Shown here: positions 5,759-58,302 of the stretch, in pieces
Layout of the letters: every line of letters starts with the position of its first letter
Position numbering within the stretch: position 1 is the first letter of the stretch
IMG/VR virus record: IMGVR_UViG_3300045988_162215
Direction: 5' to 3' (one strand)
Length of the DNA stretch: 64,000 bases
Source of the DNA: a virus
Notes under the pieces: model-generated
The model's input: the letters and a program-made list of their open reading frames with translations, nothing else
Told to the model about the DNA's origin: nothing
Database searches by the model: none
Program-made: the position numbers and the translations under genes

Positions 5759-5950
5759 TTATCTAACAGCCTCCAATACTATAACATTACTGCATTGCGG
5801 ACATTTAATAGTTTTTCTCATAGAATTATATTCTTTATAAGGATGATAATTACCCATTATCTCTATATCCTCTTTCTCAAAACTAAAAATACATCCACAT
5901 TTTGAACATTGCGTTTTTTGTTTTGTTCCCTTTTCTATTATATGTATCAT
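5759..5950 (-). CDS. zinc-ribbon protein
   Basis: CSKCGC...CPQCSN four-cysteine ribbon. Confidence 0.35.
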   Translation of the reverse strand: MIHIIEKGTKQKTQCSKCGCIFSFEKEDIEIMGNYHPYKEYNSMRKTIKCPQCSNVIVLEAVR

Positions 5951-7083
5951 AATATTATCCTTTCTTTAAATAATTGCAGAAAAATATCTGGACCCCTATC
6001 TATAGGTGAGTCCTTATACCCAATTAAATTATTATTATCGAACAAAAAACTTAATTGTGTTTTACTTCCATATTTTTTTTGCATATTTAATAAATTCTTT
6101 GTCAATTTCTTATATTCATCATCATTAACCTCTTGAAACTGTTTATCCAAACTAACGCAGATTTCTTCTGCACCCGCTTCAACCAATAATTTATATTGAT
6201 ATCCAATAAATGCAGAACCACAGCAAGCTACTGATATATCATTTTCTTTTCCAAAATAACTTGCATATAATAGTGTGCTTTTTTCAGATTCAAAAAGAAA
6301 AGCTTTTTTTATTTTCGCTATATTATCTTTACTTTTATTTAAGTTATATAAGTTAAAAGATAAAGGATGATTATACATTATCCCATTTATAATAGCCGGT
6401 CTATATTTTCCTCTATCAACAAGAGATAAATCCAAAGTTCTTTCTCTAATACCAATTAAATTATTATCCTTATCATAGTGCGGAATTACAATACCATTAT
6501 TCTTTGGATCGTAGCATATTCCCGCGGCATTGAGGATTTCTTTTTTCATACCTTCTCGTTCCCATATACCTATATTTGGATGCGGCAGTCGCGTTAAGAT
6601 AGAATCATCATATACTTTTAGTTCCACGGTTTGAGACTCTTGTTGTATATCTTTTATTCTATCATAACTATTTAAAATTTTCCAATCCTCAAGCAACGAA
6701 ACTAGATTTTTATCATCTATTTTTTGTTTTGGAGAAAACCCAAATTTTTCTGCAATATATCGAATAGCATCTGGTAATTCCCAATCAGTAGTATATTCTT
6801 TTCCTTCTGGAGTGTATTTAATCTTTTTTTGAACTCTTGATTTAACTTTTCTTGTCAATTCAAAAATATCAAACGTATCGCCACAATCAGTATAACATCT
6901 AAAAAGTTTGGTGTTATCATAATAAAAAAGTTTATGCTGTTGACCACAATGGCAAACTGTTTTAGATATTATTTTATCTCCTTGTAATATTGGATCTGCA
7001 TCAAATTCAGATAAAACATCAATAATTTGTTCTATTGTTAAAGAATTTTTAATTAAGTCTTTATCATATTCATAAGTTTGCAT
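5947..7083 (-). CDS. DNA primase (DnaG/T7-gp4-like zinc-binding domain plus TOPRIM)
   Basis: CHCGQQH...FRCYTDCGDTFDIFEL zinc ribbon. TOPRIM region with FLFESEKS and acidic residues. Confidence 0.6.
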   Translation of the reverse strand: MQTYEYDKDLIKNSLTIEQIIDVLSEFDADPILQGDKIISKTVCHCGQQHKLFYYDNTKLFRCYTDCGDTFDIFELTRKVKSRVQKKIKYTPEGKEYTTDWELPDAIRYIAEKFGFSPKQKIDDKNLVSLLEDWKILNSYDRIKDIQQESQTVELKVYDDSILTRLPHPNIGIWEREGMKKEILNAAGICYDPKNNGIVIPHYDKDNNLIGIRERTLDLSLVDRGKYRPAIINGIMYNHPLSFNLYNLNKSKDNIAKIKKAFLFESEKSTLLYASYFGKENDISVACCGSAFIGYQYKLLVEAGAEEICVSLDKQFQEVNDDEYKKLTKNLLNMQKKYGSKTQLSFLFDNNNLIGYKDSPIDRGPDIFLQLFKERIIL

Positions 7084-10239: not shown

Positions 10240-11288
10240 CAGATATGTTATCGCAAAGGCTTTTTATCCTTTGCTTCTTATGGTTTCCCATAAGTTCAGC
10301 GTACCCTCTTATCTCTACTTAAAGAGATATTAGACTCTCTTGGATTTATTATATTCTAAAAATTTGTTATGTTTTCTTTCTAAGTAAATGCTATCTAATG
10401 AATAAAGTTTTTCAAACAAAGGTACTGAATAAATTGTACTAATAGAAAATTCCCATAAACCTCTATTATCTTGGTTTAAACTACTAGGTACATTTAGAAA
10501 ATTTTTTATATCTTCTAATAATTCAGACCTATGCGCACATAATCTAAATCTACAATAATCTTTATCAATAGAAATAGTGCCATCACCATCAAAAAAACCT
10601 AAAATAAAAGCATATGTTAAGTTTTTATCTTCAAATAATGGTAAATGCATTTCTTTATAAGTTTTTCTATTTACAATACCAAATTTACTTAAAGCTTCTT
10701 TTTGCGGTCCGCTACTCCAGTTTAAACGAACAACAGAAAAACCGTTACCAGTTTCTCTTTCTATAATAGGATTTTCTATTTCAAGTTCTTTTTTTATTTT
10801 TTCTAGAATCTCTTTATCAACTGCGGATAATTCTATATTGATCCTATTCCTATCTTTTTCAACCCAACCATCTGCTGCAATAAAACCTAAAATCCAAGCT
10901 TGTGTGGGCGTTTTTATATCATTAAAATATGTATGATTAACACTTTTTGCTCTAGCAGCATTTGAAATTTGATTCTGTTGAGCTTTTGTTCTTATTTGAA
11001 CATTATTAGATTCTAATATTTTTTTGACTCTATATGGAGTAATATTAAAAATTCTTGACAGTTGAGCCATAGAAGCTCCATTTGTATATTGTAAAATTAA
11101 TTCGTTGATGTCCATATCTGTAAACATACTCCTTAACAATTTTTAGTTTCAAAATCCACGCGTTGCGCGTGTTGCTTATTTTACTAAACAACTTCCGCTA
11201 GGATTGGCATGAGATATATAATCTTTTAGCTTTCCCTCTTTTAGTCTAATGTTTGCTTTATAGTTACCTATAAAGAGACCAGTTATTT
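10240..11288 (-). mobile_element. group I intron (inferred) carrying a LAGLIDADG homing endonuclease gene, inserted in Walker A codons of the ATPase gene
   Basis: P1-like pairing of exon AGACU with intron GGUCU including a U.G wobble at the splice site. P2-like hairpin CTTTATAG-GTAA-CTATAAAG. The intron ends ...AUAUCUG before exon 2 GGUAAAACC. Splicing restores the P-loop YGGWKT|GKTTTA. Confidence 0.55.
10330..11139 (-). CDS. LAGLIDADG homing endonuclease (double-motif), intron-encoded
   Basis: Two LAGLIDADG motifs: LGFIAADGWV and LGFFDGDGTI. Confidence 0.8.
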   Translation of the reverse strand: MLRSMFTDMDINELILQYTNGASMAQLSRIFNITPYRVKKILESNNVQIRTKAQQNQISNAARAKSVNHTYFNDIKTPTQAWILGFIAADGWVEKDRNRINIELSAVDKEILEKIKKELEIENPIIERETGNGFSVVRLNWSSGPQKEALSKFGIVNRKTYKEMHLPLFEDKNLTYAFILGFFDGDGTISIDKDYCRFRLCAHRSELLEDIKNFLNVPSSLNQDNRGLWEFSISTIYSVPLFEKLYSLDSIYLERKHNKFLEYNKSKRV

Positions 11289-24535: not shown

Positions 24536-25804
24536 TTACATATTTTGTGCTAATTCAGCAATTCTTGAACGGTGAATTTTATTTAATGTTATTTCAGAAT
24601 AGAAAGGTTGTCCTTTAAATACTTCTGATACCCTTCTCATTCCATTATTAGCGCCTGCATATAGTGCAGAATCAACTTGAGCATTAGAATCTCCATCAAG
24701 AATACAAATACTATCTTCTCCAATTCTTTGGAGTGCGAGCCGCATTAGTTCGATATCAAGATTTTGTGCTTCTGTTATATAAATACCGGCATGCATTCCT
24801 GTGGTATCAAAACCTCGGATATCAGACATAGGTAACAAAAGAATATCTCCTTCTGCAAGAAGTTTCTCTACATAAACCCTATCTCCTATTTTACTATTTA
24901 AAAAGTTGCCGATTTGAGAATCCATTAACTTTTCATCTCTCGAGCCTGGATAAAAACCTAATTTAGCTGAACCTTTTGTTGCTACAGTGTTACAGAAAAT
25001 AATTATTTTATCAATAATTCCTCTTTCATATAAGTCAAATAAATAAGCAAATGAGAGATATGATTTACCACTTCCTGCGGGACCGCGTAACATACAAAGC
25101 TGGCTGTGCTGTAGTGCATCCAAAGCCGCGACCTGATATGGATCTTTTCCGGTTACTTTACCAAACTGTCTTGTATTTAAAACTGGGAAATTAAATTTTT
25201 GATATTTATTATCTCTATAAACAAAACTATCAATAATTTCATCATTATCATTAGTAATAAATAAATATTCATTTTCTAATAAATTATATTTATTATCTCC
25301 TAATGTATAAACTTTACTATAAAATTCTGCTAGTTCTTCTTCGGTCATTTGAATCTTCTCATAACCGCAATACTCTTCTTCCTCTTCTACGATAGTGTTG
25401 ACTGTTAAACCTTGAGAACTTGCTAATAAAGAACAGTTTAAATCTTTAGTAGAGAATACTAAAGTTTCGTCTTTTTCAAGATAATGTTCTTTAGCATAAC
25501 ATGCAGAACAAATAATTTTTAAATCATTATTGATTGGAATACCTGTTTTTAACGCCAATTTCTCTATTATGCTATTATAAAGAATTGCAACATATTTATC
25601 AGTTTTTTCTGATAAAAGGCGAGTTACTATTCTAGCTTGATACTTTATATCTTCGTCTTTATTACTTGAAGTTTTTATATTTTCTAATTCTTCAAGTGTA
25701 ATAGAGGAAATAAAAAATTTTTCATCTTTATTAAAGATATTTTTTGCATCGTGTAATAATGCACAAGTATCATAAAACATTACTGTGGTCTTAATAATAC
25801 TCAC
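24536..25804 (-). CDS. phoH: PhoH-like ATPase with N-terminal PIN domain (YlaK-like)
   Basis: N-terminal FYDTCALLHD (PIN). Walker A GPAGSGKSYLS. Confidence 0.75.
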   Translation of the reverse strand: MSIIKTTVMFYDTCALLHDAKNIFNKDEKFFISSITLEELENIKTSSNKDEDIKYQARIVTRLLSEKTDKYVAILYNSIIEKLALKTGIPINNDLKIICSACYAKEHYLEKDETLVFSTKDLNCSLLASSQGLTVNTIVEEEEEYCGYEKIQMTEEELAEFYSKVYTLGDNKYNLLENEYLFITNDNDEIIDSFVYRDNKYQKFNFPVLNTRQFGKVTGKDPYQVAALDALQHSQLCMLRGPAGSGKSYLSFAYLFDLYERGIIDKIIIFCNTVATKGSAKLGFYPGSRDEKLMDSQIGNFLNSKIGDRVYVEKLLAEGDILLLPMSDIRGFDTTGMHAGIYITEAQNLDIELMRLALQRIGEDSICILDGDSNAQVDSALYAGANNGMRRVSEVFKGQPFYSEITLNKIHRSRIAELAQNM

Positions 25805-25861
25805 TCCTTTTGTATAAAATTATTCCTCACGAAATATAAAAAATCGTGAGGAATGATTAAC

Positions 25862-26350
25862 TTATTTTGTTTTATTCTGTTTCTTTTTTCTGTCAATAGC
25901 ATTAGTTACAATATCTCTCTGTTTAATAGAGAAGAAAATATCATCTTCAAGGTCAAGCTTTTCATTCTTTAAATTATTTAATTTTCTAGTAAGAATATTA
26001 AACTGTCGATAGAAAATCTTTGCGGATTTTTCTTTAGGATCCCAACCTTTTGTTGATTGGCAAGCTGCAAGTAGATTCTGGTATATCTTAAACTGCTTTT
26101 TTGTATCTGCAATTTCATAAATTAAAGCATTACGAACTGCCCGCTTATAAGCAATAGTCGCTCCAAAGAGATAACTTTTTTTCTTATTATCTTCTGGATG
26201 AACAAAGCACTTTCCTCTAAAAAGCTTATTCTTATAGCTAATTATAACATCTGTTCCATTAAAAGAATCGCTCCATCCTTCACTTACAATATGAAATTTT
26301 CGTTCAATAAACTTTTTCATTATATTATCTCCTTTATAAATAGTTTTCAC
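25862..26350 (-). CDS. hypothetical protein
   Basis: ORF only. Confidence 0.35.
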   Translation of the reverse strand: MKTIYKGDNIMKKFIERKFHIVSEGWSDSFNGTDVIISYKNKLFRGKCFVHPEDNKKKSYLFGATIAYKRAVRNALIYEIADTKKQFKIYQNLLAACQSTKGWDPKEKSAKIFYRQFNILTRKLNNLKNEKLDLEDDIFFSIKQRDIVTNAIDRKKKQNKTK

Positions 26351-26894
26351 ATTCTTTTACCTTTGTAAAAATTTCTTCAATAATATCATCCAATAAAATT
26401 GGAGTTGAATTATGTGAATCTACTCCTACATGATACATATATGGTCTATCTTCATAAAAGTTGGTCTGCTGGTGCGTGTGACCGAACAAATTGATCACAC
26501 ATTGTTTGATGCTTTTGTCACTAAGATTCGCGGTTAGGGTTGGAAAATGAGAAAGATAAAAATTCATTTTTTTATACTTAATCATAGTTGCCCACCCCTC
26601 CAAAGTTACATTAGGAAGGGTGTCATAAAGTTTCCATCTAGCATCTGTATCATGGTTTCCTCTAATAATATGGATATCTCCGTTTAATTTTTTAAGACAA
26701 TCCATACCATTTGTGCTATTTCCGAGCATAACATCGCCTAAATGATAAACAGTATCTTCTGTAGAAACTACTTCATTCCATTTCTTAATAATATCTGCAT
26801 CATTTTCCGCGGCACTGGCGTACCCGCGCGGACCCCAAATAAATTCTCTATCATGTCCAAAATGAGTATCGCTCGTAATCCAAATCTTTCCCAC
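26334..26894 (-). CDS. calcineurin-like metallophosphoesterase (phosphatase)
   Basis: SDTHFGHD, GDVMLGN, GNHD motifs. Confidence 0.7.
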   Translation of the reverse strand: MGKIWITSDTHFGHDREFIWGPRGYASAAENDADIIKKWNEVVSTEDTVYHLGDVMLGNSTNGMDCLKKLNGDIHIIRGNHDTDARWKLYDTLPNVTLEGWATMIKYKKMNFYLSHFPTLTANLSDKSIKQCVINLFGHTHQQTNFYEDRPYMYHVGVDSHNSTPILLDDIIEEIFTKVKECENYL

Positions 26895-27407
26895 TTAATT
26901 CCACCCACTTTCTAAAATATATCTCTTAATTTCGCCATCTTCTTCAACAATATTTATTGCATCAAATCCTTCTTCAAATTTTGGAATAGTGAAGTTATTA
27001 AACATATTTTTAATAGCATCTTCTGGAACTAACTCTCTTCCAATTCTATGAGAATTTCTTTCTAATGCTGTTTCAAGACTTGTTCTTAAAACAATAGCTT
27101 CAACCTTAACACCTCTAAGGTTCACACCTAAAGAATTAAGTAATTTAAGGCGACTGCCCTGATTCAGATGTGTAGCATCTGCAACTGTAACATCATAATC
27201 TTTAAGTCCTCTTACAATCTCTTCAATAAAAGTCTTAAAAACCTTTTTCTCCTTAGAAAAATACTCTTCGTCTTCTCTAACAATAGAAAAACGAACCTGA
27301 TCTCTAGATACAATTTTCCAATTACTCTGACAATGAGTGTTGATAAATGTAGATTTTCCAGATCCTGGAATGCCAACCATTACATATAATATTTTATTTT
27401 TTGTCAT
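26895..27407 (-). CDS. P-loop kinase, polynucleotide-kinase-like
   Basis: VGIPGSGKSTF Walker A. Size and order (kinase then phosphatase) resemble Pnkp kinase modules. Confidence 0.5.
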   Translation of the reverse strand: MTKNKILYVMVGIPGSGKSTFINTHCQSNWKIVSRDQVRFSIVREDEEYFSKEKKVFKTFIEEIVRGLKDYDVTVADATHLNQGSRLKLLNSLGVNLRGVKVEAIVLRTSLETALERNSHRIGRELVPEDAIKNMFNNFTIPKFEEGFDAINIVEEDGEIKRYILESGWN

Positions 27408-27669
27408 TATAAACCAACTCCTTTAATTGACCATATGTTCTTATACGATTACCATTTTCATCAAAATTATGATTTTCAAATTCAAATAGAAAATCATTAT
27501 AAGTATAAGAACCTTTACACTCTACATGATTAACTTCTTTTTGACACTTTAAGCAGAACAGCTTTTTTAAATGTCCACCTTCGCGTTCTGCGCCTTTCTT
27601 CCTAGGAATGGGAATCCCGCGGCTGCCGCACGCAGTACAATATAAATCTGATATTATTGTTTTTATCAT
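27394..27669 (-). CDS. zinc-ribbon protein
   Basis: CTACGS...CLKCQ. Confidence 0.35.
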   Translation of the reverse strand: MIKTIISDLYCTACGSRGIPIPRKKGAEREGGHLKKLFCLKCQKEVNHVECKGSYTYNDFLFEFENHNFDENGNRIRTYGQLKELVYNDKK

Positions 27670-27678
27670 TATATATAA

Positions 27679-27984
27679 TCAACTCCTTTGTATTTCATAT
27701 GTTAATCCTTTTATATGTATTACTTTTTTATCTTTTACATAGTGATTCCAAAATTTTGCACCCAAGCTATCTTTTGAAGTAAGAGTATATCTAAGTGATT
27801 TATTAGGAAAAGCCATTAAAATATCATCGACAATAGATTTTCCATATCCTTCACCTCTATGGTCTTTATTAACTTCAAAATATTTACAATAGACATAATT
27901 TTCATGTTCTACAATAGTAGCATAAGCTATTCTAGTGATATTTCTACGATTTACAAACTCATAAATATTAAAAGTTTTTTCCAT
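27679..27984 (-). CDS. small GNAT-family acetyltransferase
   Basis: HRGEGYGKSIV motif region. Confidence 0.45.
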   Translation of the reverse strand: MEKTFNIYEFVNRRNITRIAYATIVEHENYVYCKYFEVNKDHRGEGYGKSIVDDILMAFPNKSLRYTLTSKDSLGAKFWNHYVKDKKVIHIKGLTYEIQRS

Positions 27985-28024
27985 ATAATTTTATCAACCC
28001 TTTCTTTATTCATATTATGTATAT

Positions 28025-28053
28025 ATTATATCATAAAATTTATAAAAAATAAA
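28025..28053 (-). promoter_or_regulatory. extended -10 promoter (TGATATAAT, weak -35 inside terminator U-tract)
   Basis: Upstream of the GNAT gene. Confidence 0.4.
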
Positions 28054-28078
28054 GTGGCAGGAATTAACCTGCCACTTT
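28043..28078 (-). terminator. intrinsic terminator after the RNA ligase gene
   Basis: AAAGTGGCAGG-TTAATT-CCTGCCACTTT plus ATTTTTTAT. Confidence 0.55.
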
Positions 28079-28082
28079 AATC

Positions 28083-36317: not shown

Positions 36318-36593
36318 TTATGCTTCTGCTGCTGCTTTCTTGAGAGCCTTTGCCCTGCGAATAAGCTGCTTACTCTTTAACTTCTTAGCATCATATGCTT
36401 CTACAAGCTGCTTATCTTCGGCTTTCTTAATATTATCAATATCCTTGCAATGCTTAATTCGCTCCTTAGAATCTGTGGATACAGACGTGTTCTTAATCAT
36501 ATTAGAAGCCTTCTGCATTCTTCTGGTCTTTTCTGCTTCAGATTCATTAGAAGCAATACTGTTCGTAAATACTATTGTCCATGTCTTTCCCAT
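36318..36593 (-). CDS. Lys-rich small hypothetical protein
   Basis: ORF plus promoter 36636-36664. Confidence 0.35.
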   Translation of the reverse strand: MGKTWTIVFTNSIASNESEAEKTRRMQKASNMIKNTSVSTDSKERIKHCKDIDNIKKAEDKQLVEAYDAKKLKSKQLIRRAKALKKAAAEA

Positions 36594-36635
36594 AATAAAA
36601 TCTCCTTTACTTTCTATCCTTTATCTTATACATAT

Positions 36636-36664
36636 ATTATATCAAAAATTTTTTAAGTTTTCAA
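36636..36664 (-). promoter_or_regulatory. promoter TTGAAA-N17-TGATATAAT (copy 1 of a 50-bp direct repeat)
   Basis: Upstream of 36318..36593. Confidence 0.5.
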
Positions 36665-36677
36665 ATTTTTGACTAGC

Positions 36678-51201: not shown

Positions 51202-51370
51202 TCCTTTACCTCCTTTATTTCAAATTCTTCTAAGTAAATATGAAAATTAGGGACATAAAAATATAGGTAATTACCCAAACCTATTTTTGGATTAAAAAAG
51301 TTCAAACATCCATTTTGGTTCAGGTGTACGAGTGTCTGCGCTCCGAGCAGATTCTGCACTCTTGTTATCT

Positions 51371-51408
51371 AAATAAAAAAAATGGAGTTTCTTAGTCAAA
51401 GAAACTCC
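51371..51408 (-). terminator. intrinsic terminator closing the tRNA array
   Basis: GGAGTTTCTT-TGACT-AAGAAACTCC plus ATTTTTTTTATTT. Confidence 0.6.
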
Positions 51409-51436
51409 ATAATAGTAAAACGGCTTGTTCAAGAAA

Positions 51437-51510
51437 TTGAGGAGGAGAGACTCGGACTCTCGGTCTTTCGCGTATCAGACGAATGCTTTAACCATCTAAG
51501 CTACTCCTCA
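51437..51510 (-). tRNA. tRNA-Ile (anticodon GAT)
   Basis: Acceptor TGAGGAG/CTCCTCA. Anticodon stem TTCGT/GCGAA with loop CTGATAC. T arm GAGAG-TCCGAGT-CTCTC. Confidence 0.55.
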
Positions 51511-51511
51511 G

Positions 51512-51573
51512 CGCTGCACACAGGATTCGAACCTGCAAAGCCTTTCAGCTCCCTCACCACCCGGACATACAGC
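51512..51573 (-). pseudogene. degenerate tRNA-like element (62 nt; intact T arm and acceptor, defective D and anticodon arms)
   Basis: T arm GCAGG-TTCGAAT-CCTGT and acceptor GCTGTAT/GTGCAGC. Anticodon region GGAGC-TGAAAG-GCTTT has a 6-nt loop. Confidence 0.4.
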
Positions 51574-52356
51574 ATACATTTTAGAATTAAAAATTTTATT
51601 TTAATTTCCTTACTTAACGCCTAGACATTGTTAAGGGGTCTGCGTTGCCGCACCATCTTCCTTTATTTCCTCATTCCATAAAAATAAAATTTTAATTCTT
51701 CAACTCGGTACTTTTCATCTCAACTTCTAATTTGCCTAGATAGTAACCGATAATTCTTATTAAGACCTGAGATAGTCGATCAAATATTTTAATCTAAAAC
51801 CGGCAATAGTTAAAAGATTAAGTCCGTTATAGTTACGAACCCACAACTCGAAATTTCATTTCCTACCTCTTATTAGCGTGGGTGGGCGTCGCCGCACATA
51901 AAGTTATGTTTAATGGAAACTTTATGTTATAAACCATATAATATGGAACTGCATTGGGTGTAAGTTATCCTACTTTAGACTCTTACTCGACTCAAGGTCA
52001 ACGCCATTCTTCATGGATGCTTTTGCAGCGGCTCTCGTCGCTATATTCCATATACTACACTTATTTTTAGCAGTAGTCGCATAGCTTTCTTTTATAGTCT
52101 GTTTGGCTGCCGACTTTCTATCGCGTTTTTGTTCGCATCACCCTGGGTACTGATAGACATTTCGCGCTCCCATTGAACCAGCTTTGAATTTAAGACCTAC
52201 ACTGTGTGGCGAGATCTATGGTCTTTAGTTTATTCAACTAATGAGCGTTATGCACTCTGCTCTCGCTTTTCAGTCTTATTTATATCTAACGGGCTTCCTG
52301 CACCTAACAGGATAATTAAGTAGGAGATCTTTTAGACTAACACCCGTTAGAAATAA

Positions 52357-52439
52357 CGCCAGCACTAGGATTCGAACCTAGATATCCAGATGGATAGAAA
52401 ACTTAGCAAGTTTCTGCGATGCCCTTACGCCATACTGGC
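52357..52439 (-). tRNA. tRNA-Ser (anticodon GCT), type II with long variable arm
   Basis: Acceptor GCCAGTA/TGCTGGC. Anticodon loop TTGCTAA. Variable hairpin ATCCA-TCT-GGAT. T arm CTAGG-TTCGAAT-CCTAG. Confidence 0.7.
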
Positions 52440-52443
52440 AAGA

Positions 52444-52516
52444 AGCCCGTAACGGGAATCGAACCCGTATCAACTGCTTGGAAGGCAGCTATGCTAGCCG
52501 TTACACCACACGGACA
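52444..52516 (-). tRNA. tRNA-Gly (anticodon TCC)
   Basis: Acceptor GTCCGTG/TACGGGC. Anticodon stem GCTGC/GCAGT with loop CTTCCAA. T arm ACGGG-TTCGATT-CCCGT. Confidence 0.65.
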
Positions 52517-52520
52517 TAAA

Positions 52521-52566
52521 TCTGGGCAGTAGGATTCGAACCTACAACGTCTTGCGTGCCTTAGCA
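52521..52566 (-). pseudogene. orphan tRNA 3' fragment (T arm GTAGG-TTCGAAT-CCTAC plus acceptor 3' strand TGCCCAG-A) immediately downstream of ORF 52568..53002
   Basis: No complementary CTGGGCA 5' strand or D/anticodon arms found upstream. Confidence 0.45.
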
Positions 52567-52567
52567 A

Positions 52568-53002
52568 TCATAATGTAGATAGAATATCTTCGGCTTTAAA
52601 ATCTTTAGCCTGCTTTTGTGTAGAAAGTCTTGTGCCAACAGTCCAAAATTTTGTCTCATAAGTTCCAAATACAGGGAACATATAAAACTTTCCATTGAAC
52701 TCTGTCATAAAATAGTCCACATCTTCAGTAGAGTAAGTTACTTTTTTTGTTTTTCCATTGTCACGCACTTCATATTTAGTACGAACAAGGAAGCCTGTTT
52801 CATCTACTGGCATAGCGTGTTTTACTTGTATCTTGTAAAACTTTCCGTTTTTTTCAATTACTAAGTCATACTTTTGATGATTTCCGATTGGAATAAGAAC
52901 ATTCCAGCCTTGTTCAATCAAATATACCTGACATTTTAATTCTGTAATATCTCCAATTTGAGATGGATTAAGGTTTTCCAATACTATCAATCCTTTCTCC
53001 AA
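52568..53002 (-). CDS. PD-(D/E)xK-like nuclease-fold protein inserted in tRNA array (paralog of 54716..55129), candidate homing endonuclease
   Basis: Shared QIG.I.E...L.EQGW.V..PI.....YDLV.EK.GKFY..Q.K with the paralog. D...EK.GK resembles a PD-(D/E)xK core. Confidence 0.4.
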   Translation of the reverse strand: MEKGLIVLENLNPSQIGDITELKCQVYLIEQGWNVLIPIGNHQKYDLVIEKNGKFYKIQVKHAMPVDETGFLVRTKYEVRDNGKTKKVTYSTEDVDYFMTEFNGKFYMFPVFGTYETKFWTVGTRLSTQKQAKDFKAEDILSTL

Positions 53003-53068
53003 AGATATTCTTTATGAATTTCCAAGACAAGCAAGCGTTTATCCTAGCTGAGTTAAACCAGCTAAAAA

Positions 53069-53142
53069 TGGACATGGGGAGAATCGAACTCCAAACACCC
53101 TTGTGGGTTCTCCACGGTGACGGCATCCAGCACTACATGCCC
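53069..53142 (-). ncRNA. tRNA-like gene with non-canonical anticodon loop (identity unresolved)
   Basis: Acceptor GGGCATG/CATGTCC, D stem GTG/CAC, T arm GGAG-TTCGATT-CTCC. Anticodon region GTGG-AGAAC-CCAC gives a 5-nt loop. Confidence 0.35.
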
Positions 53143-53146
53143 ATAA

Positions 53147-53219
53147 TGTGCCTAGAGGGGCTCGAACCCTCGACTCTCAAATTAAAAGTTTGATACTCTG
53201 CCAGCTGAGTTATAGGCAC
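53147..53219 (-). tRNA. tRNA-Lys (anticodon TTT)
   Basis: Acceptor GTGCCTA/TAGGCAC. Anticodon stem TCAAA/TTTGA with loop CTTTTAA. T arm GAGGG-TTCGAGC-CCCTC. Confidence 0.7.
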
Positions 53220-53443
53220 TTAATTTGGCATTGGATAGCTTATCTTCCCCGGCTATCAACGGCGAGTTATTTATAGTCTACTCTTAGACTAAGTGATGCC
53301 AACTCACTTTTCTTATAGACACATAAGCGTGATTTCAGTACCGACTTCCATCTGAAATTCATACTCTTTCTGCTACGCACCGCTATTGCGTTAACACAGA
53401 TACCCTTTGTTTAATTAGCGATTTTATTCTCGTCGGAGTTTAA

Positions 53444-53515
53444 TTCTTCAGGTTAGATTTGAACTAACAGCTTTGGTTCTGTAAACCAATGTTTTATCCA
53501 TTAAACTACTGAAAA
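53444..53515 (-). tRNA. tRNA with anticodon ACA (Cys-decoding position; unusual A34)
   Basis: D stem GTTT/AAAC. Anticodon stem TTGGT/ACCAA with loop TTACAGA. T arm GTTAG-TTCAAAT-CTAAC. AT-rich acceptor TTTTCAG/CTGAAGA. Confidence 0.45.
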
Positions 53516-53815
53516 TTATTTACAATATTTATCTATAAATGAATCACAACCAAGATCGCAACAAAGCTTATCTAATTCTTTTGTTGGCATTGACTGAAAT
53601 TCATCTTTAATTACATAAACATCCCAACAACAGCTTTCCAAAAGTTCTTCGTCACTAATATCATCAAAACAATCATATGATTCAGTAACCTCTAGAGCCA
53701 TGTCAAGTCCAATTTCATCTGCTTCTGCTAATGTACTAACATCATAAACAGCTAATGTGTTAATACCATGCATTCCACCGTATGTACTTTCATAAGCATA
53801 AATAAAAACCTTCAT
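53516..53815 (-). CDS. acidic Cys-rich hypothetical protein
   Basis: ORF with promoter cassette 53849-53877 upstream. Confidence 0.35.
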   Translation of the reverse strand: MKVFIYAYESTYGGMHGINTLAVYDVSTLAEADEIGLDMALEVTESYDCFDDISDEELLESCCWDVYVIKDEFQSMPTKELDKLCCDLGCDSFIDKYCK

Positions 53816-53848
53816 ATAATTATCAGCCCTTTCTTTAACTTTCTATAA

Positions 53849-53877
53849 TAATTATATCAAAAATTTTATTATTTTTC
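53849..53877 (-). promoter_or_regulatory. promoter TTGAAA-N17-TGATATAAT plus RBS cassette
   Basis: Upstream of 53516..53815 and the downstream tRNA. Confidence 0.55.
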
Positions 53878-53879
53878 AA

Positions 53880-53950
53880 ATATGTGCATTAGGATTCGAA
53901 CCTAAACAAAAAGCTCCAAATGCTTTCGTGCTACCATTACACCATACACA
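53880..53950 (-). tRNA. tRNA-Gln (anticodon TTG), second copy
   Basis: Acceptor ATGTGTA/TGCACAT, D stem GTG/CAC. Anticodon stem AAAGC/GCTTT with loop ATTTGGA. T arm TTAGG-TTCGAAT-CCTAA. Confidence 0.55.
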
Positions 53951-54082
53951 TCTTCAATTATTATATAATTGAATAAATTTAATTTAACGCGCGTTCTGTA
54001 TATTAGGTCATTACATTAAAGCAGTTCTATGGTTGAACTTTTACCAGAATGGGATTCCAAACCCTCGACTTTCTTGTAATGA

Positions 54083-54153
54083 AGCATGAAGTTGGAGTCG
54101 AACCAACCTATGAGGTTTTGCAGACCTCCTCCTAGCCGCCCGGACCTCCATGC
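54083..54153 (-). tRNA. tRNA-Cys (anticodon GCA)
   Basis: Acceptor GCATGGA/TTCATGC. Anticodon stem GAGGT/ACCTC with loop CTGCAAA. T arm GTTGG-TTCGACT-CCAAC. Confidence 0.65.
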
Positions 54154-54231
54154 AAAATATAAACTAGACACTAATATTTAATAATTGATTTGTCTTTTAA
54201 TTCTTTAATATTATAGCTGTATGTATCTAAA

Positions 54232-54303
54232 TACTCCCGACAGGATTTGAACCTGCATAGCGTGCCTTAGAAGGACACTGCCTATCCATTAGGCTACGGA
54301 AGC
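54232..54303 (-). tRNA. tRNA-Arg (anticodon TCT)
   Basis: Acceptor GCTTCCG/CGGGAGT, D arm GCC-TAATGGATA-GGC. Anticodon stem GTGTC/GGCAC with loop CTTCTAA. T arm GCAGG-TTCAAAT-CCTGT. Confidence 0.65.
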
Positions 54304-54307
54304 AAAA

Positions 54308-54380
54308 TACGGGTGGTGAGATTCGAACCCACACTTGACGAGGCTTAAACTCGTTGTCTCTGCCGTTGGACTACACCCGC
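54308..54380 (-). tRNA. tRNA-Leu (anticodon TAA) with atypically short variable region
   Basis: Acceptor GCGGGTG/CACCCGT. Anticodon stem ACGAG/CTCGT with loop TTTAAGC. T arm GTGGG-TTCGAAT-CTCAC. Variable region only 5 nt. Confidence 0.5.
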
Positions 54381-54668
54381 TTATCAGGCTAGCTGCAGTG
54401 GTATCGAGGAATTGCACCCCGGTTTCCTCTTTATAAGGAAGGCGACTTATCTAGTTAGTCGAATACCCTAGCCTATAAAAATGGCAGTCCACTCTTCTGC
54501 CGATTTAATGAGTTTCTTGCTTCTCCTGCGCAAGGCTTAATTAAATGCTTTATTCTAGGTGTTGTCGCGACACGTCACTAGAAAGAGTGTTATAATAAAA
54601 CTAAGCACATAAAATTTTTAGATTTACAATCCAAACCATCTTCTTTAAAATTGCTGTTTGTGCTTAAA

Positions 54669-54743
54669 TGGGCGGAGAGGGAATCGAACCCACTCGGGAC
54701 ATAAAGCCTTCGGTTTTATTCCTCGTCCGAGATTTGAACTCGG
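54669..54743 (-). pseudogene. two tandem tRNA 3' fragments (T arm plus acceptor 3' strands) at the 3' end of ORF 54716..55129
   Basis: CCGAG-TTCAAAT-CTCGG-ACGAGGA (overlaps the ORF's last codons) and GTGGG-TTCGATT-CCCTC-TCCGCCC-A. Confidence 0.5.
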
Positions 54744-55129
54744 TATTTATATGTTTGAAACCCTTGATTATTTGCATTTGGCTCTGTTCTTAATCTTATA
54801 GATTTTCGATTTTGCTGAATATCTTTTATTGGTATTAGCCACATATTCAAATCTTTGTTTACACAAAATAAATAATCAAGCTCAGAATGGTTTAAAAGAT
54901 TATCATAAACACCGCCATTTGTACCTCCAGTGGAACGAAAATCAATATCTCCATTTTCAGTTTGAGTAGCCTTACATTGGACAGTATAAAATTTTCCATC
55001 TTTTTCAACCACTAAATCATACCACTGAGTGTCATTTATTGGAAGAGATATTGTATATCCTTGACAAGTGAAATAATTTATTGCCATACTTAAACCAATT
55101 CTTCCAATTTGTTTTCTGTTAGTTTTCAA
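54716..55129 (-). CDS. PD-(D/E)xK-like nuclease-fold protein (TTG start) inserted between halves of a tRNA-like gene
   Basis: Paralog of 52568..53002. RBS AAAGGAG. Flanked by complementary acceptor strands GGGCGGG (upstream) and TCCGCCC-A (downstream). Confidence 0.45.
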   Translation of the reverse strand: MKTNRKQIGRIGLSMAINYFTCQGYTISLPINDTQWYDLVVEKDGKFYTVQCKATQTENGDIDFRSTGGTNGGVYDNLLNHSELDYLFCVNKDLNMWLIPIKDIQQNRKSIRLRTEPNANNQGFQTYKYRVQISDEE

Positions 55130-55149
55130 AATTATATAAAAACTCCTTT

Positions 55150-55191
55150 CGAGACCAGACCGATGTGTCTACCTTATCACGCTACCCGCCC
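55150..55191 (-). other. tRNA 5' half (acceptor GGGCGGG, D-like arm, start of anticodon region) transcribed from promoter 55214-55242
   Basis: GGGCGGGTAGCGTGATAAGGTAGACACATCGG.... Its acceptor strand is complementary to the 3' fragment at 54669-54676, about 480 nt downstream. Confidence 0.45.
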
Positions 55192-55213
55192 TTAATTTTT
55201 ACTTTCTATAAAT

Positions 55214-55242
55214 ATTATATCAAAAATATTTATGAAAATCAA
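55214..55242 (-). promoter_or_regulatory. promoter TTGATT-N17-TGATATAAT
   Basis: Drives the tRNA 5' half plus PD-(D/E)xK ORF transcript. Confidence 0.55.
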
Positions 55243-55244
55243 TT

Positions 55245-55284
55245 TGATATTTAAAGCGGCAACCGGTTTGAGATCTCAAACCGG
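55245..55284 (-). terminator. palindromic hairpin (possible terminator) between tRNA-Met and promoter 55214-55242
   Basis: CCGGTTTGAGATCTCAAACCGG perfect palindrome flanked by GC-rich arms. Moderately U-rich tail. Confidence 0.35.
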
Positions 55285-55383
55285 GCAACCGCGTTGCAAA
55301 GAAAGGTTTTATATGAACCAAGTTTTTTAACAGAACTTGGAAAACTGGGAAAGGAAGGAAGGTCAATCATGAATCTGACCTAA

Positions 55384-55454
55384 TGGCGGAAGCAGGACTC
55401 GAACCTGCGTCTCTAGCCTATGAAGCTAGCAAGGAGCCACTCCTCTATTCCGCG
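55384..55454 (-). tRNA. tRNA-Met/Ile2 (anticodon CAT; C1xC72 mismatch suggests possible initiator type)
   Basis: Acceptor CGCGGAA/TTCCGCC. Anticodon stem CTAGC/GCTAG with loop TTCATAG. T arm GCAGG-TTCGAGT-CCTGC. Confidence 0.6.
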
Positions 55455-56115
55455 ATATTATCATTTACTAATTTAATATTCTCAATAAAAACAAAATAAA
55501 ATAGTTCTTCAACTTACTAAACATATCTTCAAAATTATTACTCTACATAGGAGATAAAGGCTGAGCAAGGCTAGCTAATTCCTTACTTCTTTACCCCAGC
55601 ATAATTGCCATGTCTATGACAGGATTGATTACCTATACCTTTCACTTAAACCATTCAGCATATATAATTTTATAAAAAATTCTTCATTCTTTAATCTTTT
55701 AATGAAATTAAATATCTGCACTTTGCATTAAGCTACTTAGAGTTGCATACAGTTCTTATATCAACATTTCTGTTGTTTCATTGCAAAACGGATTATTGGT
55801 ATTTCCTAGGATTGACTTTGAGTACCACCTCGCCGCCCTAACTAGGAGAGGAAAGCATTTCTGCTAACTTTCTATTGCTCCGCCGAACCGCGTCCTGAGC
55901 TATTTTGCGATATATCTAGTGCCATGACTTTACTTTGGGTTTCCAACCTCTTCATTTCAGTATCACTACTTTCAATGCGGACCACTATCCACAAGTATCC
56001 TTGTTTCGTTCGTGCCGAGCTCTTTTCGCCATGCCTTAGCTGTGTGGTTAGCACATCTACACTAAGATATTCATTTTGTTTTTATTCAGAATATTAAATT
56101 TTCAATGAACATAAA

Positions 56116-56188
56116 TGCTGCCCCTAGGAGTCGAACCCAGTGTCATCGGATATAAGCCGATTCCCCAAAACCGTCGAGGACAAGCAGC
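56116..56188 (-). tRNA. tRNA-Ile (anticodon TAT, AUA-decoding)
   Basis: Acceptor GCTGCTT/GGGCAGC. Anticodon stem ATCGG/CCGAT with loop CTTATAT. T arm CTGGG-TTCGACT-CCTAG. Confidence 0.5.
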
Positions 56189-56579
56189 TAGTTGCATTAC
56201 TGCTCCATTACGCGCACCTGTCTACGCAACTTCCGCACTACGCCTGGACACTTGATATTCTTAGGATTTTCTTCAAGTGTTGCCAATCTATTCTTTAAAA
56301 TTGCTAATTTCTGTTCTCTTGTCATAATATCCAATCCCTTTCTATTGTTATATAATAGATCCAATCCTGCTGGTTATTAGCAAGTAAACATCGTTCACAA
56401 ACCAGCTGGATCTATACCACATTTTAGACAGTAGCCGCCTGTACGCTTCACCACTCACGTACCTAGGAGAATTTCTGCATTTTGCTTTCAATCTAACAAA
56501 ACAACTCTAAAACTAAAACAACTTTACTTACTGTTTAAGTTGAATCAGAGGCTAATTTGATTAACTTGCATATAAGTAG

Positions 56580-56655
56580 TGATCCCGGCGGGACTTGAAC
56601 CCAAGCGCATCTCGACCTTGAAAGGGTCGAATCCTAGCCTTTAGAAGACGGGACC
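56580..56655 (-). tRNA. tRNA-Glu (anticodon TTC)
   Basis: Acceptor GGTCCCG/CGGGATC, D stem TTCT/AGGA. Anticodon stem CGACC/GGTCG with loop CTTTCAA. T loop TTCAAGT. Confidence 0.55.
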
Positions 56656-56658
56656 AGA

Positions 56659-56731
56659 TGACTCCAGATAGATTTGAACTATCATCCCCTGACTGAGAAT
56701 CAGGAATCCTGAACCATTAGACGATGGAGCC
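56659..56731 (-). tRNA. tRNA-Glu (anticodon CTC)
   Basis: Acceptor GGCTCCA/TGGAGTC. Anticodon stem CCTGA/TCAGG with loop TTCTCAG. T arm GATAG-TTCAAAT-CTATC. Confidence 0.55.
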
Positions 56732-56857
56732 TTGAATTAGGAATTTTGGCAAGATTCCTTTAACTTGGAGCCCTTATCATCCTCGAACCCTAGGAGGTTT
56801 TGTTACTTTTTATTAACGAGAGTTAGAACAAATTTTCCTTTCGCAGTTTCTCTCAAA

Positions 56858-56930
56858 TGGATTGTATTGGTGTCGAACCAATTCCTCTTGGGCTTCAACC
56901 AAGCGCTTCTACCGAGTTAGCTTACAATCC
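56858..56930 (-). tRNA. tRNA-Phe (anticodon GAA)
   Basis: Perfect acceptor GGATTGT/ACAATCC. Anticodon stem CTTGG/CCAAG with loop TTGAAGC. T arm ATTGG-TTCGACA-CCAAT. Confidence 0.7.
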
Positions 56931-56979
56931 TTTCTAAAGTGACTAAAGTCGCCTTCCATAATTACATCTCCTTTTCATT

Positions 56980-57008
56980 TACTATAATAATTATATCAAA
57001 AATTTTTA
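56980..57008 (-). promoter_or_regulatory. promoter TTGATT-N17-TGATATAAT plus RBS cassette
   Basis: Upstream of tRNA-Phe, tRNA-Glu and further tRNAs. Confidence 0.55.
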
Positions 57009-57186
57009 TGAAAATCAATTAAATTGCTTTTTGTCTATGTATTCAAGAAGCATAACTTGGATACATAAGGTGAGCTAGTACGTCAACTCCACACATCTCA
57101 ATCTAACGGCATATCTTAGACATCTTTATTCATCATTTCGTATGATAGGAGTGAGGGAAAGCTATACTCGACAATCTCTCCTATAA

Positions 57187-57260
57187 CGTCTTGATATTTA
57201 TCCCCTCAAGCGGGTGAGGCGACATCGAAAGATTCGAACTTTCAACCTTCCTTCCATACG
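57187..57260 (-). pseudogene. degenerate tRNA-like element (canonical T arm GAAAG-TTCGAAT-CTTTC, acceptor pairs, no anticodon arm)
   Basis: CGGCATT...GATGTCG acceptor with wobble pairs. The central region cannot form a 5-bp stem and 7-nt loop. Confidence 0.3.
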
Positions 57261-57413
57261 GACGGTTATGCTTCCTTTTACACCAATGCCGCAAATGTAC
57301 TTATTGCAGTAAGTACACCGAGTTATTTTGGCTTTTTCGTATAATATACTGCAATATATCATTGACTAATATCAACCAAACAAGTCCTTCGACTAGTACT
57401 CCGCACGCAGACC

Positions 57414-57485
57414 TTAATTCGGTCCGGAGGGAATCGAACCCTCATAATCTTCTCTTATAACTCTACCAAACTCCTCGTCGTTGGC
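57414..57485 (-). pseudogene. degenerate tRNA-like element (T arm GAGGG-TTCGATT-CCCTC, acceptor TGGTCTG/CGGACCG, no foldable anticodon arm)
   Basis: As described. The anticodon region TAGAG-TTATAAG-AGAAG does not pair. Confidence 0.3.
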
Positions 57486-57619
57486 AGACCACACTTGCTT
57501 TACACCAGAGGTTTAGTGATGCCCCTCTATCATCAATGGCTAACTTTGTTTTTTACACCGGAAGGTTCCGCCGCACCCACCATCAACACTCATTAACAGC
57601 GAAGTTCACCTAGAGTAAA

Positions 57620-57692
57620 CTCCCACAACAGGGCTCGAACCTGTGACCCACGGTTTAACAGACCGTTGCTCTACCAACTGAGCTATATGGGA
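57620..57692 (-). tRNA. tRNA-Asn (anticodon GTT)
   Basis: Canonical D arm GCTC-AGTTGGTA-GAGC. Anticodon stem ACGGT/ACCGT with loop CTGTTAA. T arm ACAGG-TTCGAGC-CCTGT. Acceptor TCCCATA/TGTGGGA. Confidence 0.75.
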
Positions 57693-57916
57693 ATATTAAA
57701 GAGAGCAACCACGAAGGGATAGTCTAGGAAGATTTCACGCTCTCACGCGATAATTATTTCTCAGATTTTTTATATTGCGATCACTGAGAAATGAACAAAT
57801 TATCAACGATTTTTTCTCGCCCACTAAAAAGACCGCGATTTATTACTACAACTTATTGTCGCTTTTGCCCAGATAGGTTAGTAAGTTGCAACTACGTACG
57901 CCCTATCAAACGTTAA

Positions 57917-57988
57917 TTCCGATTATGTGAATCGAACACATATTACCGGGTTACAAAGCCGGGGTTCTAGCCTTTGAACTAAATCGGA
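57917..57988 (-). tRNA. tRNA-Thr (anticodon TGT)
   Basis: Perfect acceptor TCCGATT/AATCGGA, D arm GTTC-AAAGGCTA-GAAC. Anticodon stem CCGGC/CCCGG with loop TTTGTAA. T arm ATGTG-TTCGATT-CACAT. Confidence 0.65.
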
Positions 57989-58005
57989 TTATTTTCTCTA
58001 TAATT

Positions 58006-58034
58006 ATTATATCATAAATTTTTTATTTTTTCAA
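58006..58034 (-). promoter_or_regulatory. promoter TTGAAA-N17-TGATATAAT
   Basis: Upstream of tRNA-Thr, at the start of the tRNA array. Confidence 0.55.
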
Positions 58035-58099
58035 GTAGGTATTTTATTATCAAAAAACTTTTATTTTCTTTAATAACTCTTTACCAACTTTCTATAATA

Positions 58100-58128
58100 A
58101 TTATATCAAAAATTTTATTATTTTTCAA
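58100..58128 (-). promoter_or_regulatory. promoter TTGAAA-N17-TGATATAAT (tandem with 58006-58034)
   Basis: Second copy about 95 bp upstream of the first. Also carries the RBS cassette. Confidence 0.5.
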
Positions 58129-58134
58129 ATGATT

Positions 58135-58302
58135 TTATTTTGCTCCAATAGAGCCATCTTTATATAAGCGATATGTTAAAATGTCTCCGCCTATACAACC
58201 TACAATTTCAATGTAGTCTGGAGTAAGATGCCTTTCAATCTCATAATCAAAGCGATTAAGAGAAAATTCATTTGCATGAACTCTTAACTCTGCATCTGTC
58301 AT
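58135..58302 (-). CDS. small hypothetical protein (55 aa)
   Basis: Strong RBS ggaggt. ATGA overlap with the stop of the upstream gene. MTDAELRVHANEFSLNRFDYEIER.... Confidence 0.35.
   Translation of the reverse strand: MTDAELRVHANEFSLNRFDYEIERHLTPDYIEIVGCIGGDILTYRLYKDGSIGAK

Follow-up and report, generated by a model that had tools for sequence, protein, structure and literature searches.

Two classes of large non-coding RNA (ncRNA), GOLLD and ROOL, are known from phage tRNA arrays, and both have recently been reported to form RNA-only nanocages; GOLLD is said to go back to Weinberg in 2009. In GOLLD, which lies in phage tRNA islands, the 3′ region is conserved and the 5′ region varies (PMC12286853). 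Here we consider a tract between two tRNA genes (positions 51574-52355) in a 64,000-nucleotide (nt) stretch of viral DNA, the IMG/VR record IMGVR_UViG_3300045988_162215, referred to below as the window. This tract probably encodes one or more structured ncRNAs that would be cut from a tRNA precursor and would have a GOLLD-like arrangement, that is, a lineage-specific, modular 5′ part followed by a conserved 3′ domain, which we call C2.

We searched Rfam 15 at gathering thresholds over the window and permissively (E<=10) over positions 51300-58200 and 51560-52360 (801 nt). The likeness to GOLLD is one of layout and not of membership: both are large phage or prophage ncRNAs, encoded on the tRNA strand within tRNA islands or next to them, and in the tRNA arrays considered here C2 is common to lineages whose 5′ parts differ. 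On the other hand, the GOLLD model had no match in the window at its gathering threshold, nor at E<=10 in either of the two stretches, nor at the C2-bearing loci L100-L102, L034, L107 and L104 (L numbers denote loci or contigs of other phages); moreover, the conserved 3′ part is here only ~115 nt long. ROOL (RF03087) is likewise a large ncRNA flanked by tRNAs in phage arrays, and a genuine ROOL is encoded 3 kb upstream of the tract, within this very array. Its model (cut-off 99.1 bits) had no match in 51560-52360 at E<=10, and ROOL was not found at the C2-bearing loci of other lineages in the stretches examined. Because both models fail, the tract is not a member of either family.

A known family lends no help to the tract as a candidate ncRNA: with permissive filters, nothing credible was found in 51560-52360 at E<=10, and the tmRNA-, RNase P- and Y RNA-like molecules that a sequence-only reading of this DNA had suggested had no Rfam match at that level. 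The sole match, to RAGATH-32 (RF02922), was rejected, as it reached 16.3 bits (E = 0.43) against the required 41.8 bits and was not reproduced at the C2 sites of L100, L101 and L102. C2 resembles Y RNA/YrlA (RF02553) and vault-type RNAs in its long end-to-end stem enclosing a large internal loop, and the phage encodes a set of RNA-repair-type proteins that includes a DUF2828+vWA-like and a major-vault-protein-shoulder protein; however, the YrlA model gave only matches of 17-19 bits that overlapped real tRNAs, with none in the tract, and a tRNA-like module is absent. Large comparative screens of phage intergenic regions list 10,006 and 224 candidate structured RNAs (PMC10690425, PMC5737381), and are alike in their conservation and covariation evidence and in the IMG/VR gut and rumen phage habitat. 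The newness of C2, and of the ~500-nt RNA described below, is stated with respect to Rfam 15.

C2 and the ~500-nt RNA of other phages

C2 is built on an AU-rich closing helix of ~18 bp, within which there are a 5′ GAGG, the purine-rich strand GGAAGAUGGUGCGG, a helix that we call S1 (AACGC/GCGUU), a 4-bp hairpin (AGAC/GUCU) with, in the window, the loop CCCUUAACAAU, and a 3′ AGUAA (for coordinates see Table 1). The 5′ GAGG, a GGAWGAGGUGUGG-like purine run, S1, the AGAC/GUCU hairpin and the 3′ AGUAA are common to all the C2s found by pattern. We defined the family by an end-to-end closing helix, 5′ GAGG, a GGWGUGG-type purine strand, a covarying S1, a 4-bp hairpin with an 11-13-nt loop and 3′ AGUAA.

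Scans with the core pattern found C2 in five further lineages (L034, L102, L100/L104/L099, L101 and L107; six with the window), which have no other similarity to the window and in which all C2s lie inside tRNA arrays on the tRNA strand. For these first six lineages, part of the invariance of the core is imposed by the search pattern. We then used a covariance model of the core, R1, which scored 75.6 bits on positions 51608-51654 of the window (itself in the seed alignment) and reached members outside the seed, L128, L198, L193, L196, L119 and L195, at 24.8-58.8 bits. These diverged members differ in their loops, and two of them have AAAC/GUUU instead of AGAC/GUCU. A family profile built without the window matched the window at 51603-51682 with E = 1.7e-12. 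As a whole, C2 is present in at least ten divergent phage lineages, almost always between tRNA genes, and with R1, as overall, in one copy per locus examined.

Helix S1 occurs as AACGC/GCGUU, CUC-CGC/GCG-A-GAG, CC-CGC/GCG-A-GG, CCCCGC/GCGGG and, in L128, GAUGC/GCAUC; three of its pairs are changed on both sides, one of them or another appearing with four pair types, and its covariation score was 0.247 versus 0.067 for shuffles (reached in 0/500). The closing helix ranges from 12 to 30 bp and differs in sequence in every lineage; when the flanks were shuffled in five lineages, the observed number of enclosing pairs was reached in 17/400, 28/400, 14/400, 0/400 and 0/400 cases. No Rfam 15 family matched at the C2 sites of the window or of the other lineages checked. 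Judged by these comparisons, C2 is a predicted RNA domain that Rfam does not contain, and many unrelated phages of gut and rumen carry it in their tRNA arrays. Targets complementary to the C2 loop were no more frequent in the window than expected by chance.

A GC-rich, conserved element of ~10 IMG/VR contigs that shares the 15-mer GGCAACGCAGACCCC with C2 was rejected as unrelated, and R1 does not match it. This element (…GGAGGGGAC…GUCGGGCAACGCAGACCCCARUGAAACGCGAACCAAGC…) was seen in L010, L011, L014, L018, L020, L021, L030, L044, L045 and L059. Just upstream of the C2 tract of L034 (~1921-2290, minus strand) we noted by eye a tRNA-like gene with its halves ~290 nt apart, possibly an intron-containing tRNA.

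In one phage group C2 is the 3′-terminal domain of a strongly covarying RNA of ~500 nt bounded by tRNA genes. L100, L104, L107 and L099 have in common a conserved and covarying stretch of ~330 nt upstream of C2, with no open reading frame (ORF) of at least 40 aa on the same strand, and a profile of this region also matched L101 and L119. A scan seeded solely on the 5′ motif TGTGAATATAGGCGG ... TCGTTAGG gave seven new loci, in five of which C2 was found 385-423 nt downstream (L193, L195, L196 and L198, on new contigs, and L194, which is the L119 contig). The unit found in this way lies directly between two tRNA genes wherever both flanks are present in the sequence. Twenty pairs are changed on both sides among four diverged sequences, and among eight sequences long helix strands are visibly swapped wholesale. 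The ~500-nt RNA had no match in Rfam or in GenBank phages.

RNAalifold twice proposed a long-range pairing of the 5′ segment CCUGUACGUUAAACAGGGG of this RNA with the C2 core. We rejected it, the segment being a local covarying hairpin in eight sequences (stem variants CCUGU/ACAGG, CCUAU/AUAGG, CCAAU/AUUGG and CAGAU/AUCUG); the variants give no support to a loop-loop contact of this segment either.

The profile of the whole family matches the window over C2 only, hence the window and its relatives have the 3′ domain and not the 5′ domain of the ~500-nt RNA. The tract of the window would be the counterpart of that RNA, with a modular, lineage-specific 5′ region of its own (A, then B or a linker, then C1) placed before the shared C2.

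The tract of the window and its 5′ modules

The tract takes up the whole space from tRNA-Ser(gct) to a truncated tRNA-Ser(tga), and the block that the sequence-only reading had placed inside the tRNA array (51575-52356) fits this gap. It was there described as free of ORFs, which holds on the strand of the genes, where we found no ORF of at least 30 aa in 51575-52356; 51202-52567 is the second-longest stretch of the window with no minus-strand ORF of at least 60 aa. Three plus-strand ORFs of at least 30 aa touch the block (Table 1), the longest of which runs antisense to tRNAs and only clips the block edge. An elevated GC content had also been claimed. The value is mildly raised (0.371 versus 0.329 in the window), but it reaches only the 83rd percentile of 782-nt windows, and C2 is AT-rich (GC 0.30).

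As for the many local hairpins of the earlier description, the two that were named could be placed in C2, but the argument is weak alone, the minimum free energy of the whole tract being no better than that of shuffles (z = -0.85 on the minus strand and -0.77 on the plus strand). Precisely, CTTAAC/GTTAAG competes with the covarying helix S1 and is absent from other lineages, and the GNRA hairpin UGCG-GCAA-CGCA is not retained outside the clade of the window. No cloverleaf was seen within 51574-52355 by ARAGORN or by the Rfam tRNA models, in agreement with the sequence-only reading. Its suggestions of decayed tRNAs and intron remnants found no counterpart: no tRNA remnant was detected inside the tract, the truncated tRNA-Ser(tga) standing just outside it, and there was no intron signature. 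Its proposal of structured ncRNA was supported by comparison with related phages, a check that it had itself named, in which helices of A, C1 and C2 are kept by compensatory changes; G-U pairs fit the minus (tRNA) strand only.

The relatives were obtained via homologues of an adjacent 582-aa protein and are contigs of ~140-146 kb, from gut metagenomes where the source is named. Along the tRNA strand the tract is a string of separately conserved modules, H0, A, B, C1 and C2. The commonest order is tRNA-Ser(gct), H0 or a short leader, often a pair of ORFs (ORF61+ORF116), A, a linker of ~75-85 nt, C, tRNA-Ser(tga) and tRNA-Ile(gat). In the window, L103, L090, L091 and L096 the ORF61+ORF116 pair is missing and module B replaces the linker; L088 has neither the pair nor B, and in L053 module A is reduced to a minimal form of ~150 nt. 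Comparison of the window with L001 gives ~97-99% identity for A and C, versus 84% for the neighbouring protein.

Module A is a multi-helix RNA in which P1 closes a junction of P2, P3 and P4, followed by UGGG/CCCA, CGC-AUAG/CUAUGCG, AGUC/GACU and a 3′ hairpin. We aligned 13 distinct variants on a curated structure of eight helices. In this alignment 94.7% of cells are paired, nine pairs are changed on both sides, and the covariation score is 0.180 versus 0.109 for shuffles (reached in 0/500) and 0.04-0.06 for controls with slid partners. P1 is AAGAC/GUCUU, AAGAAC/GUUCUU (L073-type) or AAGAGC/GCUCUU (L053, L092); P2 is GCGAG/CUCGC, GCAAG/CUUGC (L082) or, in a second type, ACGA/UCGU; the 3′ hairpin swaps C-G, U-A and U-G. 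Several invariant G-U pairs of A fit the minus strand only.

The hairpin H0 is 96-100% identical in L082, L088, L090 and L091 and, being invariant, gives no covariation; in L082-type relatives the ORF61+ORF116 pair comes after it. Module B contains two hairpins, GCG[GCGA]CGC and GUUCG...CGGAC, as well as a domain that is closed by UAUGGAA/UUCCAUA. It was found in the five sequences named above only, and is ~80 nt longer in L090, L091 and L096. Between the two length forms GUUCG/CGGAC changes to GUUUG/CAAAC, a compensatory change, and the GCGA-loop hairpin keeps its pairing by wobble (GCG/CGC to GCG/UGC). In C1 the outer stem CGGUUAC/GUACCG is invariant, and the inner stem is UCUAG/UUAGA in the window type versus CUUGG/UCAAG in the L001 type, with three pairs changed on both sides.

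Proposed role and competing explanations

The best explanation of these data is that the tract encodes one or more structured ncRNAs and not decayed genes. Enzymes of tRNA processing would release the RNA from a polycistronic precursor, with cuts by RNase Z or exonucleases where tRNA-Ser(gct) ends and by RNase P at the 5′ end of the downstream tRNA, ~10 nt past the closing helix of C2. This long helix may serve as a processing or stabilising stalk as well. The near-constant hairpin of C2 and its purine-rich internal loop are proposed as a binding surface for a conserved partner, most probably a host component of translation or RNA processing; we propose a host partner because the phages that share C2 have no detectable similarity in the flanking DNA compared. 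We also counted in favour of an ncRNA the ROOL of the same array, since with it the operon already holds a large ncRNA flanked by tRNAs.

Several observations weigh against this explanation. Folding energy was not significant versus shuffles for the whole tract on either strand, and C2 alone gave z = -1.2 in the window. An nhmmer profile found A only in the clade of the window, and the whole-family profile did not reveal it elsewhere either; the structure tested for A was derived from the same sequences, and its compensatory changes represent few independent events because the sequences of the clade are closely related. Deletions in A have cost L088 the 3′ strand of P1, and L090 has in this way lost the 5′ strand of P3; B is clearly dispensable. 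Since A suffers such deletions and was not detected beyond one clade, and since B can be missing, the tract may be one RNA or several. In other phages, the whole inter-tRNA tract of L034 is only ~225 nt long, and in L192 and L197 no C2 was detected with the 5′ domain of the ~500-nt RNA, the tract between the tRNAs being shorter there (~345 nt).

We consider it unlikely that C2 is a cis-acting element of the tRNA operon with no stable RNA of its own, such as a processing stalk (RNase III-type), a 5′ structure that protects the downstream tRNA or a boxA-like anti-termination signal by which the long untranslated array would be shielded from Rho. Its position next to a tRNA would suit such an element, the distance from the end of C2 to the next tRNA being usually 4-40 nt (~4 in L034, 5 in L101, 10 in the window clade, 37 in L102, and 30-42 in L193, L196, L198 and L195), and so would its closing helix of 12-30 bp; however, a processing stalk would need neither an internal loop that is purine-rich and conserved nor 5′ domains that covary. 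In the case of boxA, which shields other long non-coding arrays (PMC7665894), the common feature is a short CUUUAACAA-like sequence, single-stranded and set within an untranslated array of some length. In fact, the C2 loop of the window, CCCCTTAACA, agrees with the consensus GYTCTTTAANA (PMC5725501) at 8/11 positions, a consensus that is gamma-proteobacterial and may not be that of the host. Nevertheless, ACCCCTTAACA misses positions 1, 3 and 5, the sequence sits in a hairpin loop, and this loop varies among members (CACUUUAAUAAU, CAACUAAUAGU, CCAUAAAUGAAU; it differs in L119, L128, L193, L195 and L198), unlike one fixed site for a boxA-type protein. Neither is C2 promoter-proximal: in the window a pseudo-tRNA, one tRNA and a terminator come after it, and elsewhere it lies in the middle of the array.

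A still lower probability is given to the tract being non-functional debris of homing-endonuclease traffic, gene loss and tRNA decay, conserved only through recent divergence. The mosaic layout (ORF61+ORF116 present or absent, B versus linker, internal deletions of A), the small ORFs of PD-(D/E)XK type (PDDEXK_5) in the array, the truncation of the adjacent tRNA-Ser(tga), the T-arm-like remnants elsewhere in the array and the non-significant folding energy would all agree with debris. Against it, compensatory changes maintain helices in A, C1 and C2, the non-coding modules are better conserved than the adjacent protein gene, and C2 is retained in lineages with no other detectable similarity across the loci compared. 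Very improbable, finally, is a micro-peptide encoded by the C2 core (M-V-R-Q-R-R-P-L-N-N-V-stop in the window), for instance a leader peptide sensing tRNA supply. The window clade, L102 and L107 have an in-frame AUG and L100 has a UUG, each frame ending in RRPLNNV-stop, and the sole variable base of the core among the pattern-selected members, C or U, is a synonymous third position. However, L034 has no start codon, in L101 the AUG is in a different frame, the GAGG stands 12-15 nt from the AUG in three lineages, a poor spacing, and the diverged members L119, L198 and L195 have no UAG. Moreover, one codon reads as Q, L or P owing to the changes in S1, and the compensating bases lie past the stop codon, hence the constraint acts on the RNA.

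If the tract is a processed ncRNA ending in C2, it might belong with large RNAs that form, next to GOLLD and ROOL, a third class in the tRNA arrays of phages and act on a conserved host machine; we advance this only tentatively, as the less probable case. Such RNAs would be molecules of ~0.2-0.8 kb with a shared 3′ C2 and exchangeable, richly structured 5′ domains, cut out during tRNA processing, and they could form higher-order RNA particles as GOLLD and ROOL do. A further family in the niche of these two would be an independent handle on the function of such RNAs, and the shared C2 domain could be used as bait for a common partner. Natural swaps mark the dispensable parts: B present or absent, the minimal A of L053, and the 5′ domain with no C2 in L192 and L197. 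For annotation, the empty stretches of phage tRNA arrays should not be dismissed as decayed tRNAs.

The tRNA array and its surroundings

To judge from its genes, the window is probably a piece of a large phage genome. All its long ORFs are on the minus strand, with genes for gyrase A and B, a DnaB-like helicase, a RecJ-like protein, tail-fibre repeats and an endolysin, and ARAGORN found 16 tRNA genes on this same strand at 51437-57988. The pseudo-tRNA-Ser(tga) has lost 20 nt, including the anticodon arm, and gives only a 20.5-bit tRNA-type match in the window; the gene is intact in L001, L053, L082 and L093. Since promoter-like sites and a terminator-like hairpin bracket the tract, we assign it to the interior of the array's last transcription unit; no strong promoter-like site was found inside the tract. 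The promoter-like motif AAAAATTTTTGATATAAT (TTGAAA, 17 nt, extended -10) recurs across the array and was also seen at 35978-36675 of the window and in unrelated C2-bearing phages (L100 copy at ~4400-4440, minus strand); in L100 and L104 one copy stands immediately upstream of the ~500-nt RNA.

Table 1. Positions of the features discussed, in the window unless another locus is given
Feature	Position	Strand	Remarks
tRNA-Ser(gct)	52356-52440	-	ARAGORN and Rfam; 5′ boundary of the tract
H0 hairpin	52290-52355	-	directly 3′ of tRNA-Ser(gct); 9-bp stem UCUAACGGG/CCCGUUAGA
Module A	52050-52278	-	multi-helix RNA of ~230 nt; window clade only; RNAalifold structure
Module B	51799-52051	-	optional insert of ~250 nt; replaces the ~75-85-nt linker of most relatives
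Module C1	51700-51798	-	conserved segment; hairpin 51707-51751
Module C2	51584-51699	-	stem-enclosed domain; last ~116 nt of the tract
Pseudo-tRNA-Ser(tga)	51511-51573	-	63 nt; aligned with the intact L001 gene (9608-9690); 3′ boundary of the tract
Intrinsic terminator-like hairpin	51382-51410	-	12-bp stem, then U run; directly after the last tRNA; ends the unit of the tract
Closest strong promoter-like site upstream of the tract	53879-53851	-	TTGAAA, 17 nt, TATAAT, with TG
Strong promoter-like sites	58128, 58034, 57018, 55242, 53879	-	TTGAAA or TTGATT, 17 nt, TATAAT, with TG
ORF, 80 aa	51382-51624	+	at least 30 aa, touching the block
ORF, 38 aa	51954-52070	+	at least 30 aa, touching the block
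ORF, 39 aa	52204-52323	+	at least 30 aa, touching the block
ROOL RNA (RF03087)	55483-56090	-	full length; between tRNA-Ile(tat) and tRNA-Met
~500-nt RNA, L100	3900-4390	-	5′ domain and C2
~500-nt RNA, L101	751-1236		5′ domain and C2
~500-nt RNA, L119	1762-2253		5′ domain and C2
~500-nt RNA, L193	~10600-11095		5′ domain and C2
~500-nt RNA, L196	~2080-2608		5′ domain and C2
~500-nt RNA, L198	1-545		5′ domain and C2
~500-nt RNA, L195	~5540-6043		5′ domain and C2

Two paralogous small ORFs (52568-53002 and 54716-55129, minus strand; phrog_5018) lie inside the tRNA array, and their homologues in the relatives carry PDDEXK_5, some of them NUMOD1. Both resemble homing endonucleases, and the mosaic indels among the relatives would agree with such an activity. 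Searches of GenBank phages with the tract, the neighbouring protein and the ~500-nt RNA gave no match, and a scan of 185,579 species genomes with the C2 core pattern gave none; no host is assignable, because both searches were empty.

A cluster of RNA-repair-type genes (24536-35977, minus strand) encodes PhoH-PIN, a metallophosphoesterase, a P-loop kinase (AAA_33), an RNA ligase, the peptidyl-tRNA hydrolase PTH2, an 831-aa protein with major-vault-protein shoulder and Vault_3 domains, a second metallophosphoesterase and the DUF2828+vWA-like protein. The gene for the last (34508-35977) is 16 kb from the tract. DUF2828 is presumably TROVE-like; a PDB sequence search of the protein gave no Ro60 match. 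It is very widespread, with at least 8000 database matches and 710 cultured-phage records. We found no link of C2 to the DUF2828 and vault-like RNA-repair genes, the protein being far more widespread than C2 appears to be and C2 lying within 3 kb of a DUF2828 gene in only 2/80 IMG/VR loci (L119 and L128).

Three more blocks of the array had been likened to the tract in the sequence-only reading. The fourth of the series (55455-56115) is already explained, because the full-length ROOL lies there (274.3 bits), and is not a new ncRNA; L001 also carries ROOL, at 5320-5920. In the third (54381-54668), for which a tRNA-like fold had been described, there is a tRNA-like element at 54400-54467 on the minus strand, but it scores 28.9 bits, just under the threshold of 29. 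ARAGORN missed it, and its L001 homologue passes the threshold with 32.3 bits. The second (53220-53443) is conserved in the relatives at 91-100% but could not be classified. It is one of three minus-strand spacers, with 53952-54082 and 56189-56578, that are conserved to this degree across the clade with no Rfam match; in 56189-56578 an AUG preceded by GGGAUUGGAUAUU may mark a small ORF.

Two T-arm-like sequences, GAGGGUUCGAUUCCCUC and GAAAGUUCGAAUCUUUC, were noted in 56931-57618 (minus strand), a 688-nt stretch with no minus-strand ORF of at least 60 aa; like the element at 54400-54467, they may be decayed or unusual tRNAs. Recoding is not evident in the window, whose long ORFs are intact under code 11. 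The array includes a suppressor-type tRNA at 54231-54304 (minus strand), with the anticodon CUA, which reads UAG, and related arrays have tRNAs with UUA or UCA anticodons (L001 7423-7493, L100 1150-1223 and L104 2123-2191).

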